In this document: positions 12,807-20,031 of the stretch, one piece after another | How the letters are laid out: every line of letters starts with the position of its first letter | Numbering within the stretch: position 1 is the stretch's first letter | Assembly: GCA_905209085.1 (NCBI GenBank) | Contig: CAJLRM010000001.1 | Location: 328,289-392,288, forward strand | Direction of reading: 5' to 3' | Length of the DNA: 64,000 bases | Source of the DNA: an uncultured Eubacteriales bacterium | Lineage (GTDB): Bacteria; Bacillota; Clostridia; Christensenellales; Borkfalkiaceae | Notes under the pieces: generated by a model | Told to the model about the DNA's origin: nothing | What the model saw: only the letters and a program-made list of their open reading frames with translations | Databases searched by the model: none | Made by a program: the position numbers and the translations under genes

Positions 12807-13982
12807 TTACTTCCTAAATCTAAAATACTTTCTCGCGATATTTTTCATTTTCTCGGTCAAATCAGAAAATTTCCTAACATGACCATGATAAAGTGAAACT
12901 TCTTTTCCATCAATTATTTTAATCTGTGTTCTATCTAAAACTACTAATTGATCATTAGAAAAACCGACTCTTCTTGGAGAATCCGATGAAATTAAATAGG
13001 AATTATCCAAAGCAGCTTGCCCATCAATTGGCTTTGGACTTTTAACACTATTTCCTGTCGAAGTATGATATGGGGCATCTTCATACACGCCATGTTCATA
13101 AGTATAACAATTTTTATTATGAACGCAAACACCTGTTCCGACATAATAGGTATGGAAATCTTCTACTTCAAAGTTATACGTCGTCTGCGCATTATCGTAA
13201 TGCTTGCTTTTTACGCTTTCTATTATACCATATCTTCCGTCCCAAAGTAATACTTTATCTCCTTCTTTTAGTTCTTCCGCACTCCTCCATTCCTTCTTTT
13301 CGGGCAAATAATACTTATGTCCACTAGTACTTTCGATCTCTTCTCCGTTCACTTTCACGATTGTCCATTCTTTACTTTCGTTTCGGAAGAGTCTTACTAC
13401 TTCTTTATACGCCTGTTTCCCCGTTTCTTCGTCGTATGCGAGTACTTTATCTCCGACTTCTACCTCCTCGATATTCTTGTACCCGTCCTCCGTCTTTACT
13501 TTTGTTCCCGCTATAAAACATTTTCCTGGATTACATTCCCCGCCTTGGCTGTTCGGGAGTTTTTCTCCTGTCACCCTGTTCTGCGCCGACGTCCGCAGCG
13601 CTTTCTTCCCCGCTACCTTCAATGTCGCCTGCAACGCCTTGAACGCCTGCAATACCGCGATTGCCGACAACACCACGTCCACGACCGCAATCACCACAAA
13701 TAGCAGATTTAGCCAGCTTGGCTCCTTGATAAACGCACGCACCGCCTCTATCAGTCCGTATACCGCCAATCCTAAAAACACTAACGACACTACCAGCCCG
13801 ATAATCGCGCCGATTAAGTGCCCGCTCGGGTCCGCATGATTTACGGGATTATTCAGACAGTAGCTGTATAGATTCTGTCCCCCAATCGTCGTCAGGTATT
13901 CGCCTGATACTACCCCTACATTATCCGCATTGATAAAACGTCTTATCTCCGCGTCATAGTATCGACTCTGCAAATAATACAA
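12807..13982 (-). CDS. Orphan Rhs C-terminal cassette: Rhs core end (DPxGL), TM helix pair, Hint domain, then a ~100-aa toxin (possible HNH/EndoVII-fold nuclease).
   Basis: 391 aa. NPVNHADPSGHL is followed by IGAIIGLVVSLVFLGLAVYGL...VIAVVDVVLSAIAV. The Hint domain runs CFIAGTKVKTEDGYKNIEEVEVGDKVLAYDEETGKQAYKEV ... EDFHTYYVGTGVCVHNKNC. The toxin contains SLYHGHVRKF. The first codon is TTG (Leu in the main gene). In-frame Rhs-core homology continues up to ~14093 with no ATG or RBS. Confidence 0.7.
   Translation of the reverse strand: MYYLQSRYYDAEIRRFINADNVGVVSGEYLTTIGGQNLYSYCLNNPVNHADPSGHLIGAIIGLVVSLVFLGLAVYGLIEAVRAFIKEPSWLNLLFVVIAVVDVVLSAIAVLQAFKALQATLKVAGKKALRTSAQNRVTGEKLPNSQGGECNPGKCFIAGTKVKTEDGYKNIEEVEVGDKVLAYDEETGKQAYKEVVRLFRNESKEWTIVKVNGEEIESTSGHKYYLPEKKEWRSAEELKEGDKVLLWDGRYGIIESVKSKHYDNAQTTYNFEVEDFHTYYVGTGVCVHNKNCYTYEHGVYEDAPYHTSTGNSVKSPKPIDGQAALDNSYLISSDSPRRVGFSNDQLVVLDRTQIKIIDGKEVSLYHGHVRKFSDLTEKMKNIARKYFRFRK
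13385..13735. repeat. Copy 1 of a ~350-bp direct repeat encoding the TM-helix pair plus the Hint N-half.
   Basis: Near-identical to 15180..15530 and 19705..20060. The antisense ORFs 13317..13703, 15115..15501 and 19582..20001 share ...YYFFIRLFPRFFVVCEYFISDFYLLDILVPVLRLYFCSRYK.... Confidence 0.6.
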
Positions 13983-14190
13983 CTTCGTGTCTTCGTCGTA
14001 ATAATAGCCCTTATACCGGAACGGATTGACCCGACCTATATGACTATTATATAACTCTTTCTCCGTGATGTCAATACCCTCTTCGTTATATACAATAATA
14101 AATAAAAGTGTTGCAATATCATAAATATCACAACACTTTTACTTATTAAGTTTTCATTATATGATTTAATTATATTACTGAAGTGTTATT

Positions 14191-14589
14191 TTAATCTTTA
14201 ATTTCACTTAACTCAAAATCTACTGCACTTATCTCTAGAATATTATCTCTTAAGTCAACAATAAAATGTCTAGACTCTTTCATAAAGGATGCATCTTCAT
14301 CATTTTCTTTAAGTGCTTTTTTAAGTTGCATAATCCATTCTGAATTTTCCACCTCAAGAATATGCCTTTGATATATTCCCAACTCAAAGCTTTCTCTAAT
14401 AAGCAAAATATCTTTGTCAAAACAATCAGCCGTTGTTATTTTGAGTGCTTGATATGGTTTGAATACCATTCTATACCGATTTTCATTAACATCATCTAAC
14501 TCTATAACTATCACATTTTCCTCAATCGATATGTGTTCTAAAGGTACATTATTAATTATAAAAGATTTATTAATTATTTTTGCTTTCAT
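14191..14589 (-). CDS. Putative immunity protein for the orphan toxin 14593..15495.
   Basis: 132 aa, acidic, low GC. It starts 3 nt after the toxin stop. Confidence 0.5.
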   Translation of the reverse strand: MKAKIINKSFIINNVPLEHISIEENVIVIELDDVNENRYRMVFKPYQALKITTADCFDKDILLIRESFELGIYQRHILEVENSEWIMQLKKALKENDEDASFMKESRHFIVDLRDNILEISAVDFELSEIKD

Positions 14590-14592
14590 TTT

Positions 14593-15495
14593 TTACCTCA
14601 ATCTTATAGATCTTCCACCATTTATAGTTGTAAACTTCCAAGCCAGTTCTCGTACAATATTGGGTGCTGAAGGGTTTACCCACCTAACATTTATTTGACT
14701 CATACCAGCTTGCTTAAAAGCATAGAGCCTACGATTATCTAGAGTAAAAATTTTTCCGTCCTGTTCAAATACTCTTATAGCGGGAACATCATCTGCTGTA
14801 ATAGAACCATTTTTCAATCCAGTTATCATATCATCCACCGAACGTCCATCACTAAATTTGCGACCGATACTATCTTGTGTGTAATAAATATCATTTGGAT
14901 CAAGTTGGCAAGTATTATGAACCAATACGTCATTTTCGGTGACATAGTAAGTATGGAAGTCTTTTACTTCAAAGTTGTACTTCGTTTCCGCCTTTGCCAG
15001 CTCTTCTTTCTCTATCTTCTCTATCTTTACCTGGCTTCCGTCCGAAAGCGTCAATTTATCTTCTTCCGTTAAATCTTTCGCTTCTACGAATCCTTTTCCC
15101 TCTACATAAAACCGATGCCCTCCCGTACATACGATCTCTTCCCCTTCCACAAATACATGATACCATTCGTCCGTTTTTCCTCGGAAGAGCCTTATTACTT
15201 CTTTATACGCCTGTTTCCCCGTTTCTTCGTCGTATGCGAGTACTTTATCTCCGACTTCTACCTCCTCGATATTCTTGTACCCGTCCTCCGTCTTTACTTT
15301 TGTTCCCGCTATAAAACATTTTCCTGGATTACATTCCCCGCCTTGGCTGTTCGGGAGTTTTTCTCCTGTCACCCTGTTCTGCGCCGACGTCCGCAGCGCT
15401 TTCTTCCCCGCTACCTTCAATGTCGCCTGCAACGCCTTGAACGCCTGCAATACCGCGATTGCCGACAACACCACGTCCACTACCGCGATCACCAC
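14593..15495 (-). CDS. Orphan toxin cassette: TM helix, Hint domain, then a ~105-aa C-terminal toxin of unknown family.
   Basis: 300 aa. Begins MVIAVVDVVLSAIAVLQAFKALQATLKVAGKK with a GTG first codon and no SD. The Hint domain runs CFIAGTKV...DFHTYYVTENDVLVHNTC. The toxin is QLDPNDIYYTQDSIGRKFSDGRSVDDMITGL...FTLDNRRLYAFKQAG. Rhs-frame homology (GLIKAYRAFIKEPSWLNLLF) continues upstream to an in-frame stop at ~15559. Confidence 0.65.
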   Translation of the reverse strand: MVIAVVDVVLSAIAVLQAFKALQATLKVAGKKALRTSAQNRVTGEKLPNSQGGECNPGKCFIAGTKVKTEDGYKNIEEVEVGDKVLAYDEETGKQAYKEVIRLFRGKTDEWYHVFVEGEEIVCTGGHRFYVEGKGFVEAKDLTEEDKLTLSDGSQVKIEKIEKEELAKAETKYNFEVKDFHTYYVTENDVLVHNTCQLDPNDIYYTQDSIGRKFSDGRSVDDMITGLKNGSITADDVPAIRVFEQDGKIFTLDNRRLYAFKQAGMSQINVRWVNPSAPNIVRELAWKFTTINGGRSIRLR

Positions 15496-18743: not shown

Positions 18744-18913
18744 AAATACATGATACCATTCGTCCGTTTTTCCTCGGAACAGCCTTACTACTTCTTTATA
18801 CGCCTGTTTCCCTGTTTCTTCGTCATAGGCAAGACTTTATCTTCAAGTTTTCGTGTAATTTTTATCTCGAAAAATGGATGGCTTCAAAAAAGTCATCCAT
18901 TCCCCTCTAATTA

Positions 18914-19117
18914 TTAATAATCCGAAATAATCATAAAATTTGTCGATTTCCCATCAAAATTTCGAAATGTCAGTTCATGAATATTCTTTCTATTAACATT
19001 CACATAATAATTTTTTAATATGTTAACAGCTTCTTTTAAAGATTCCGCCTTAACGGCTGCAACATCAGCATCCTCTTCAAAATTTTGATTTCTTTCATAA
19101 TATATAAAAGTTTTCAT
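18914..19117 (-). CDS. Putative immunity protein for the orphan toxin 19129..20031.
   Basis: 67 aa. It starts 11 nt after the toxin stop. Confidence 0.45.
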   Translation of the reverse strand: MKTFIYYERNQNFEEDADVAAVKAESLKEAVNILKNYYVNVNRKNIHELTFRNFDGKSTNFMIISDY

Positions 19118-19128
19118 ATCTTATCTCC

Positions 19129-20031
19129 TCAATACCATTTGTTTATGCCTTGAATAATATCATCTATATTATCCTTAATAAATTTAAGCATTTTTCGTTG
19201 AGTATTTTTATTCATCTTTGATTTAACTAAAATATTTCCTGTTGCATCAACCGAAGCCAATTTTTGATTTTTCCAGTTAATATGAGCGTGCGGGGTTTTA
19301 TGATTTACTTCACCACCAACAGATACTTTAGCGTTCCACCCATTCTCGTCCCCTGCAACCAACTCCTGTTTGCATTTATTATGAACCAACACAGCCTTTT
19401 CAGAAACAAAATAAGTATGGAAATCTTCCACTTCAAGGTTATAGGTTGTTTCAGGGGCAGACAGCTCTTCGGTCTTAACGCTTTGTATTATACCATATTC
19501 ACCGTCAGAAAGCAAGACTTTATCGCCTTTTTTCAGTTTACAGGCGGATACCCATTTTTCTGACAATTCGTAATAGCTTTCATGTTCTTGACTGTCCCCT
19601 ACTTCACGATTTATCGTATTATCAGGCAGGTAATACTTATGTCCAGGCGTAGAAGTAATTTCGGTAACCGTTCCATTAACAGCAACAGAAACTGTACACC
19701 ATTTCATTGTTTCGTTTCGGAAAAGCCGTTTTACTTCTTTATACGCCTGTTCCCCCGTTTCTTCGTCGTATGCGAGTACTTTATCTCCGACTTCTACCTC
19801 CTCGATATTCTTGTACCCGTCCTCCGTCTTTACTTTTGTTCCCGCTATAAAACATTTTCCTGGATTACATTCCCCGCCTTGGCTGTTCGGGAGTTTTTCT
19901 CCTGTCACCCTGTTCTGCGCCGACGTCCGCAGCGCTTTCTTCCCCGCTACCTTCAATGTCGCCTGCAACGCCTTGAACGCCTGCCATACCGCGATTGCTG
20001 ACAACACTACGTCCACGACCGCGATCACCAC
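19129..20031 (-). CDS. Orphan toxin cassette: TM helix, Hint domain, then an ~85-aa toxin that may be a small HNH-like nuclease.
   Basis: 300 aa. Begins MVIAVVDVVLSAIAVWQAFKALQATLKVAGKK with a GTG first codon. The Hint domain runs CFIAGTKV...EDFHTYFVSEKAVLVHNKC. The toxin contains GGEVNHKTPHAHINWKNQ. Confidence 0.65.
   Translation of the reverse strand: MVIAVVDVVLSAIAVWQAFKALQATLKVAGKKALRTSAQNRVTGEKLPNSQGGECNPGKCFIAGTKVKTEDGYKNIEEVEVGDKVLAYDEETGEQAYKEVKRLFRNETMKWCTVSVAVNGTVTEITSTPGHKYYLPDNTINREVGDSQEHESYYELSEKWVSACKLKKGDKVLLSDGEYGIIQSVKTEELSAPETTYNLEVEDFHTYFVSEKAVLVHNKCKQELVAGDENGWNAKVSVGGEVNHKTPHAHINWKNQKLASVDATGNILVKSKMNKNTQRKMLKFIKDNIDDIIQGINKWY

Follow-up and report, generated by a model that had tools for sequence, protein, structure and literature searches.

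Hint domains ahead of the toxins in an Rhs array of an uncultured gut Firmicute: a predicted release module and a candidate handle for toxin exchange

How is the toxin of an Rhs protein released when an intein-like Hint domain lies between the Rhs aspartyl-protease site and the toxin, and what is the role of such domains in cassettes detached from any complete rhs gene? The question is raised by a stretch of 64,000 nucleotides (nt) of contig CAJLRM010000001.1, assembly GCA_905209085.1 (positions 328,289 to 392,288; hereafter the window). The locus, which comes from an uncultured gut Firmicute, is an Rhs polymorphic-toxin array. A single full-length rhs gene (20603..27055; 2150 amino acids, aa) is followed downstream by five orphan toxin/immunity modules, designated 19129, 18165, 16055, 14593 and 12807. 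All open reading frames (ORFs) of the array are located on the minus strand, at the coordinates assigned to them by a first-pass annotation made from the letters alone, apart from one boundary corrected below. The features of the array described here are on this strand.

The same annotation distinguished two architectures, and both are present. The main gene and orphan 16055 end in ...NPVNHADPSGHL, two hydrophobic helices and a toxin and have no Hint domain, whereas the four remaining orphans (12807, 14593, 19129 and 18165) carry a Hint domain recognized by Pfam. The window is thus a compact natural example of one delivery scaffold with two C-terminal designs side by side. The reading favoured here is that the Hint-bearing segment forms a C-terminal module acting through an aspartyl cut, storage in the Rhs shell, membrane engagement and release of the toxin by Hint, with the orphans serving as a swappable reservoir; taken as a whole, this is considered fairly probable. 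Sequence comparison and structure prediction establish the domain identities, the presence of the helix pair and the conservation of catalytic residues; they also show that the array is a mosaic and varies between strains.

Domain organization of the C-terminal modules

The main gene encodes a CBM96-like N-terminal region (E 2.7e-12), YD repeats (PF05593, E 1.3e-24) and the Rhs-associated core (TIGR03696, E 3.4e-19), which extends up to the variable region; the last residue of the core match is 1951, which is the His of DPSGH. It is followed by the motif DPSGHL (21200..21217), a pair of transmembrane (TM) helices (21026..21202) and the toxin. The main Rhs protein shows neither an obvious signal peptide nor an LXG or WXG region. 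The core profile is also matched in orphans 16055 (E 2.8e-20) and 12807 (E 5e-14), where its last position is reached at residues 265 and 55, respectively, each being the His of DPSGH. The 5' homology of orphan cassettes to the main gene is seen in segments 13666-14093 and 16500-16927, which are 88-90% identical to 21051-21478.

In the Hint-bearing orphans the pre-toxin family PT-HINT (PF07591) is matched with E 6e-26 (91.8 bits) in 12807, 6.9e-26 (91.6 bits) in 14593, 3.7e-25 (89.2 bits) in 19129 and 2.1e-13 (51.1 bits) in 18165, the last match covering only the C-terminal 60% of the domain; the curated cut-off is 27.7 bits. In all four copies the toxin begins at position +1 after the terminal His-Asn, and a small ORF lies downstream. 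The domain is the known pre-toxin HINT, or A-type BIL (bacterial intein-like), architecture. The nearest solved relative in the PDB sequence search was the BIL domain of C. thermocellum (2LWY, E 4e-21), and the next was the Hint domain found in UmbC1 from Streptomyces (8W20, E 3.7e-14). The AlphaFold model of the 12807 product, for which 123 aligned homologues were used, has predicted local distance difference test (pLDDT) values of 87-98 across residues 150-290. Foldseek superimposes it on 2LWY with a target-normalised TM score of 0.95 and a root-mean-square deviation (rmsd) of 1.0 Å, with BIL2 and mini-inteins coming next. Pfam, the PDB sequence search and the AlphaFold model with Foldseek all agree on the Hint/intein-like fold predicted in the first-pass annotation, and the 12807 product has the Cys1 and the terminal His-Asn that belong to this fold.

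Residues C155 (Cys1), T219, H222, D275, H277, H288 and N289 of the 12807 product are invariant or nearly so in alignments of 12 and of 123 homologues; they make up the conserved motifs Cys1, TxxH, DxH of block F and the terminal His-Asn. With these catalytic residues conserved, the Hint domain may release the toxin autoproteolytically. The residue following His-Asn had been expected to be Cys or Thr. It is in fact Lys in 12807, Thr in 14593, Asp in 18165 and Lys in 19129, and among 114 homologues it is never Cys, being Thr in 10 and Ser in 2. A Cys is found two or three residues past the terminal Asn in 107 of these 114 database homologues (94%) and in 85 of 90 Firmicutes-like genomic copies, irrespective of the toxin family. 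The corresponding sites of the window are 13105..13115 (Lys-Asn-Cys, 12807), 14908..14913, 18501..18506 and 19372..19377. In relatives from Verrucomicrobia and Planctomycetes, this Cys is mostly at +5/+6. Of 92 copies, 49 have a further Cys at -4 to -6, ahead of Cys1, and the motif in the window is C-N-P-G-K-C. Two examples with Ser in place of Cys1 differ in this respect, as one has no nearby Cys (L051) and the other has Cys at +4 (L061). The role of the +2/+3 Cys would be accessible through a single mutant.

Orphan 12807 (12807..14093) contains, in a single frame, the Rhs core tail, DPSGHL (13815..13832), TM1 and TM2 (13641..13817), a basic linker, the Hint domain (13116..13520, with Cys155, TSGH at 219 and His-Asn at 288-289) and a CdiA-CT-like toxin (12810..13115), which matches the CdiA toxin of PDB 5T87 with E 4e-7 in the PDB sequence search. 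The Kyte-Doolittle profile of its product shows two hydrophobic segments at residues 56-80 and 90-115, with 19-residue means of up to 2.8 and 3.0, and AlphaFold predicts two long helices at residues 52-86 and 90-135. As stated in the first-pass annotation, 12807 has DPSGHL and Hint in one frame. Of the putative aspartyl-protease site, both Asp can be recognised, as can the Arg of RYYD, but the motif is non-canonical: it reads DNVG-x27-DPSGH, the canonical form being DPXGX18DPXG, and the residue after Gly is His and not Leu. Judged by these motifs, the toxin might be trimmed twice and its release coupled to membrane insertion. A tandem of the Rhs aspartyl cut and the Hint cut seems not to be explicitly discussed in the literature searched.

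The module is not confined to this genome. A search with the DPSGHL-TM-Hint segment returned 563 proteins, the best 120 of which all measure 170-430 aa and all contain PF07591; the toxin families behind the homologous Hint in many of these 120 include LHH, AHH, Ntox21, Tox-REase-7, Tox-REase-9 and a ribonuclease. A scan of one genome per species yielded 79 loci. Hint-containing stop-to-stop ORFs with YD motifs reach 1700-2357 aa in Clostridia, Lachnospiraceae, Bacilli, Anaeroplasmataceae and Parabeggiatoa, and full-length Rhs-TM-Hint-toxin ORFs of this size are found at L001, L002, L009, L045, L051, L020, L040 and others. The L001 protein (2295 aa) has a matching helix pair ('KEPSWLNLLF') ahead of Hint, and two to six hydrophobic or glycine-rich helices precede Hint in most Firmicutes examples. 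Arrays elsewhere hold up to six 5'-truncated Hint fragments, with several each at L032, L064, L013, L039 and L022. A separate case is a 2782-aa ORF in the metagenome-assembled genome of a Thermoplasmatales archaeon (L072), which contains at least five tandem Hint domains with short linkers, unlike the single pre-toxin Hint.

Junctions of exchange in the Hint-coding DNA

The layout of the array was derived from self-BLAST and in-frame upstream translation, and the breakpoints from a sliding identity profile. A near-identical block is common to orphans 12807, 14593 and 19129 (13400..13736, corresponding to approximately 15200-15534 and 19735-20070) and comprises TM2, the linker and the first 45 or so Hint residues. 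Across this block, the three cassettes are 93-100% identical in 30-nt windows, and the identity falls abruptly to 40-80% past 'AYKEV'. The block is a candidate homology arm. Another junction is found at the opposite end of the domain. Orphans 14593 and 18165 are approximately 100% identical from mid-Hint to the last Hint codon (14914 = 18507), after which their toxins show 40-50% identity; in self-BLAST, 14914-15250 and 18507-18842 are 97.6% identical and the identity stops exactly at the last Hint codon. The sharing of a C-terminal Hint half between these two copies with different toxins had been noticed in the first-pass annotation and is confirmed with coordinates refined to these values, while the truncated copy, placed there at 18165..18743, extends to 18842 and lacks Cys1.

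Orphans 14593 (14593..15534) and 19129 (19129..20070) consist of the end of the TM1-TM2 loop, TM2, the linker, Hint and toxin. Their homology begins in the loop ('GLIKAYRAFIKEPSW') with a stop codon before it, so that the supposed position of Hint behind both TM helices holds for 12807 and not for these two cassettes, which keep TM2 only. The Hint domain of 14593 (14914..15318) contains Cys60, TGGH and His-Asn followed by Thr-Cys, and its toxin occupies 14596..14913. In 19129 the Hint domain (19378..19854) bears a 24-aa insertion, which brings it from the usual 135 aa to 159 aa, and the toxin is at 19132..19377. Orphan 18165 (18165..18842) is truncated at its 5' end within Hint and starts with 'LAYDEETGKQ'; its Hint part is at 18507..18842 and its toxin at 18168..18506. 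The 5' truncation points of the array thus fall into three classes, located in the Rhs core, in the TM1-TM2 loop and inside Hint. One Hint variant is joined to four different toxins, namely in 14593, 18165, P0010 and L080:18254..19120. Since the conserved TM2/N-terminal Hint block and the exact Hint C-terminus are the junctions of exchange or truncation, the sequences support the view that Hint-coding DNA serves as a crossover site, or homology handle, for toxin swapping. The breaks of identity in mid-Hint, the truncation within Hint and the single variant on four toxins uphold the earlier proposal of recombination inside the domain, and the array provides sequence-level evidence for such a crossover site.

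Rearrangement of the cassettes is also evident between strains. The syntenic sister strain L080 (GCA_041334705.1) differs from the window by several rearrangements: the 19129 toxin is found there on a 969-aa Rhs fragment with DPSGHL, TM1, TM2 and Hint, and the C-terminus of its main gene is the 16055-type toxin of the window. The same type of toxin terminates P0136, an allele on a metagenome contig that belongs to the 90% cluster of the main protein. Within the window, a 2.3-kb duplication includes orphan 16055 (15181-17470 versus 19717-22021, 88.9% in self-BLAST). At present, the Hint cassettes of the window, all of them orphans, are best taken for a stock of alternative toxins with standing immunity genes. 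Translation of the orphan ORFs is doubtful: the start codons are GTG/TTG, stop codons lie upstream, and one copy is devoid of Cys1.

Predicted course of toxin release and rival explanations

From what is known of the protein families involved, the following course can be proposed. With the module on a complete Rhs protein, the aspartyl protease would cut after DPSGH, and the resulting fragment (TM pair, Hint and toxin; 336 aa) would be retained inside the YD-repeat shell. After delivery, the helix pair would engage the target membrane. The Hint domain would then fold and cleave itself at its ends through the Cys1 thioester and Asn289 cyclisation, and a soluble toxin, here an RNase-like relative of CdiA-CT, would be freed. 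For the Hint chemistry to act, a cassette would have to be moved by exchange to a complete gene, or the orphans would have to be translated. An Rhs construct made from this locus could test whether the aspartyl and Hint cuts are sequential, redundant or alternative.

Several observations weigh against this course of events. The motif DNVG-x27-DPSGH departs from DPXGX18DPXG. In addition, no Hint cassette is located on a complete rhs gene within the window, and no Hint C-terminus occurs in the three same-species full-length alleles (window, P0136 and L080), which are a small sample. The TM2 identity between the main gene and the orphans is only 63-73%; a direct swap of TM2-led orphans onto the main gene as it now stands would therefore have a low efficiency, and only the 12807 cassette has a good arm to this gene (428 nt at 88%). 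The proposal also does not account for the topology of delivery, as a two-helix hairpin inserted from the outside would leave Hint and toxin outside. Type A BIL domains can also splice (PMC4031507), so release is not the sole possible chemistry.

The wider occurrence of the protease site points in the same direction. The search for Rhs proteins with DPxGL followed by Hint, suggested in the first-pass annotation, gave a divided answer. Fifteen ORFs from other genomes have a recognisable Rhs core tail before Hint. The terminal DPxG is kept in three of them (L044, L045 and L051); L001 has DASGQ, and L029, the fifth match to the regular expression, has an internal DALG site only, its terminal motif being DSDG. 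The other 10 of the 15 are without any D[PA]xG, and two tandem cleavages are therefore no fixed property of the architecture. The Hint domain may act in place of the aspartyl cut rather than in addition to it: the tandem of Hint and aspartyl site is one variant, and elsewhere Hint seems to stand alone. The helix-Hint-toxin Rhs proteins from which the terminal DPxG is gone are those of L002, L007, L008, L009, L012, L013, L015, L020, L031 and L040 (e.g. '...NGLDRHSATYDN...').

The chemistry of the domain admits other explanations. According to one of them, Hint splices, and its self-excision ligates the TM module to the toxin, giving the Hint-less layout of the main gene. Type A BIL domains are capable of splicing without a +1 nucleophile via aminolysis of the Cys1 thioester (PMC4031507), Hint and Hint-less architectures occur side by side in one array, the near-universal +2/+3 Cys might capture the thioester near the new N-terminus, and 14593 has Thr at +1. 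However, cleavage products predominate in the BIL domains tested (PMC4031507), the +1 residue is Lys or Asp in three of four copies and never Cys in the homologues, and the fused toxins are mostly nucleases or RNases that would gain from freedom from a membrane anchor. Splicing is thus regarded as unlikely, and equally so its corollary that Hint is a removable adaptor whose real value lies in the conserved DNA for cassette exchange. The same cysteines have suggested gating by redox state or translocation. Disulfide control of inteins is known; here the +2/+3 Cys, and the Cys at -4 to -6, would form a disulfide with Cys1 outside the cell, and the cut would occur only in the reducing cytoplasm of the target. 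The +2/+3 Cys is maintained across toxin families and never stands at +1, the upstream Cys is present in about half of the copies, and 12807 has both C-N-P-G-K-C before Hint and HN-K-N-C after it. Yet the host looks strictly anaerobic, with a glycyl-radical enzyme and its activase nearby, so that an oxidising exterior is not assured; moreover, the two Ser1 examples conflict with each other, and the Cys could be merely structural. This makes the gating quite unlikely. A genuine mobile intein that invaded an rhs gene was rejected as extremely improbable. The Intein_splicing, intein_Nterm and Hom_end_hint models are matched and mini-intein structures are good fold matches in Foldseek, but Intein_splicing (22-33 bits, cut-off 35.8) and Hom_end_hint (19-23 bits, cut-off 32.1) remain below threshold in every copy, and the intein_Nterm cut-off of 24.5 is passed only in 14593 (30.2 bits), as against 89-92 bits for PT-HINT in the complete copies. 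There is no homing endonuclease in a domain of this size, three of four copies are without the Cys, Ser or Thr that canonical inteins have at +1, and the host site is a hypervariable junction and not a conserved site of an essential housekeeping protein.

A different explanation concerns the cassettes as such, which might be stand-alone genes for small membrane-anchored TM-Hint-toxin proteins working without an Rhs shell. The short length of the best 120 of the 563 homologues agrees with this, as do P0033, P0038, P0055 and P0064, which have non-Rhs multi-helix N-termini before Hint. A perfect sigma-70 consensus (TTGACA-17-TATAAT, 12/12) is found just upstream of the 12807 ORF. This consensus is present on the minus strand at 14046..14074, 16880..16908 and 21431..21459, where the main gene and the two orphans that include core sequence encode the Rhs core tail, and the homology of the 12807 cassette starts approximately 18 nt upstream of the -35 hexamer; as a candidate promoter, it could drive the expression of orphan toxin/immunity pairs. 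On the other side, one and the same module begins at three different places, each with a stop codon upstream; the GTG/TTG starts have no obvious ribosome-binding site, one copy is deprived of Cys1, the sister strain and other species have the same cassettes attached to Rhs cores, and metagenome contigs are mostly short, which biases the search toward short ORFs. Stand-alone function is therefore held to be very unlikely. A broader extension of the favoured module-and-reservoir reading is rather doubtful: the unit formed in Firmicutes Rhs and related toxins by hydrophobic helices, Hint, x(1-2), Cys and toxin would be a conserved, undescribed delivery-and-release device. Its helices would insert the fragment into the target membrane or take it across, the +2/+3 Cys would be required, whether to lock Cys1 by redox state or to accept the thioester and so steer cleavage versus ligation, and the aspartyl cut would have been replaced in many lineages.

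The array, its surroundings and known systems

Every toxin in all modules of the array is trailed by a small ORF, and no Pfam family was found in these putative immunity genes. That of the main toxin (20182..20562, 126 aa) lies directly after the toxin and is a paralogue of the putative immunity gene of 16055 (15651..16025, 124 aa). In orphan 16055 itself (16055..17470), an Rhs core tail, DPSGHL (16649..16666) and a TM pair (16475..16651) precede a toxin that is a paralogue of the main toxin. The 19129 toxin is followed by a 67-aa ORF (18914..19117), and this ORF also comes after the 19129 toxin in L080. The putative immunity gene of 18165 (17644..18144, 166 aa) was assigned by position; those of 14593 and 12807 are at 14191..14589 (132 aa) and 12333..12803 (156 aa), the latter having its start codon 3 nt past the toxin stop codon. 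A palindrome of 40-53 nt follows the immunity ORF in five of the six modules (12253-12292, 14096-14148, 15596-15635, 17505-17545 and 20127-20166), and none was found after the 67-aa ORF. The palindromes mark cassette boundaries; among them only 14096-14148 also has a T-run and is terminator-like. At the distal end of the array, past the last immunity gene, an Rhs core remnant without toxin (11881..12249) is 92.7% identical to 21740-22108 and 90.8% to 17189-17470 and was probably left behind by a past rearrangement.

Apart from the 12807 toxin, the four other toxin types show no significant match in Pfam or among PDB sequences. Nothing was obtained from the PDB sequence search for the toxins of 14593, 18165 and the main gene, and Pfam at E <=1 returned for the toxins only a weak TNT match in the main one (18.9 bits, cut-off 27) and a weak DUF4160-like match in 19129. 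The DNRRL motif of the 14593 toxin is reminiscent of ParB-like toxins. Plus-strand ORFs within the repeats (e.g. 13317..13703 and 15115..15501) are antisense artefacts of repeated coding sequence. Upstream of the main gene, a conserved ORF (27074..28135, 353 aa) has no Pfam family, and a small cluster with AMP-binding, PP-binding and BtrH_N (peptidase C39-like) genes extends over 28712..31890. The opposite flank (5939..8870) encodes a GH2 glycosidase as well as the glycyl-radical enzyme and the radical-SAM activase that belongs to it. The flanking genes fit an anaerobic gut Firmicute. The GC content drops from approximately 0.52 in the flanks to 0.29-0.45 within the array.

The locus represents no new class of system. 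The domain family, its pre-toxin place, the association with RHS and the position at the head of spare cassettes have all been published, and the novelty implied in the first-pass annotation cannot be maintained: the combination of RHS, HINT and toxin was catalogued in 2012 (PMC3482391), and spare cassettes led by a BIL domain are known from MafB (PMC4287609). The modest new points are the combination of Hint with a helix pair and an Rhs protease site that seems intact, the breakpoints in and at the end of Hint, the loss of DPxG in many Hint-bearing relatives and the near-universal Cys two to three residues past the terminal Asn. In the 2012 survey, HINT is listed among the releasing peptidases; its place is just ahead of the toxin, and it was found with all repeat types including RHS (Zhang et al. 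2012, PMC3482391); it occurs with the type II, V and VII secretion systems (T2SS, T5SS and T7SS) and TcdB/TcaC routes and never with the type VI system (T6SS) (PMC3482391). The PT-HINT of Zhang, Iyer, Aravind et al. resembles the domain described here in being followed directly by a variable toxin and then an immunity gene, the family being above threshold in the window, and in its ties to both RHS repeats and stand-alone cassettes (PMC3482391). The survey predates knowledge of the Rhs aspartyl-protease cut; the tandem of DPxG and Hint is absent from its discussion, and the passages searched contain no mention of hydrophobic helices between the Rhs core and Hint (PMC3482391).

Type A BIL domains possess His-Asn and lack the +1 nucleophile; their splicing is possible, with cleavage products dominating (PMC4031507, PMC7664689), and P. 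syringae CdiA has a BIL domain that was reported to be autoproteolytic (PMC4725963). The Hint domain of the window shares with this domain and with 2LWY the Cys1, the terminal His-Asn, the absence of a +1 nucleophile and of an endonuclease, and a hypervariable secreted host; its identity to 2LWY is 38%, with the TM score of 0.95 and rmsd of 1.0 Å given above. Unlike these domains, it is known from sequence and a model, belongs to an Rhs host protein and is preceded by a helix pair. Its conserved +2/+3 Cys is not mentioned in the BIL literature consulted. In the large secreted protein UmbC1 of Streptomyces (PDB 8W20; PMC11062931), a Hint domain (E 3.7e-14) likewise stands directly before the polymorphic toxin at the C-terminus, but the scaffold is made of ALF repeats and not of Rhs, with neither an aspartyl-protease site nor a TM pair (PMC11062931).

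As for the Rhs part, the C-termini of Rhs/TcC proteins are cut by the aspartyl protease and held partly unfolded inside the shell (PMC8765631, PMC10684867), and Tse5 carries a hydrophobic membrane-inserting C-terminal fragment inside its shell (PMC10684867). RhsA and Tse5 share with the proteins of this locus the YD repeats, the Rhs-associated core, the two conserved Asp and DPxG before the variable region (PMC8765631, PMC10684867). In contrast, they are T6SS effectors of Gram-negative bacteria without Hint, whereas the spacing here is x27, with His rather than Leu after Gly. A parallel in cassette structure is provided by the class 1 MafB proteins of Neisseria, in which an A-type BIL domain is located at the constant/variable junction and the spare mafB-CT cassettes start with a slightly truncated BIL-coding region (PMC4287609). 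Both systems have 5'-truncated BIL cassettes with toxin and immunity gene, and a role of this region in variation was proposed by the authors (PMC4287609). MafB differs in its signal peptide and N-terminal DUF1020 domain and is devoid of the Rhs shell, aspartyl protease and TM pair (PMC4287609); its cassettes are truncated by 7 residues (PMC4287609), whereas the truncation points of the present array span the region from the Rhs core to mid-Hint.

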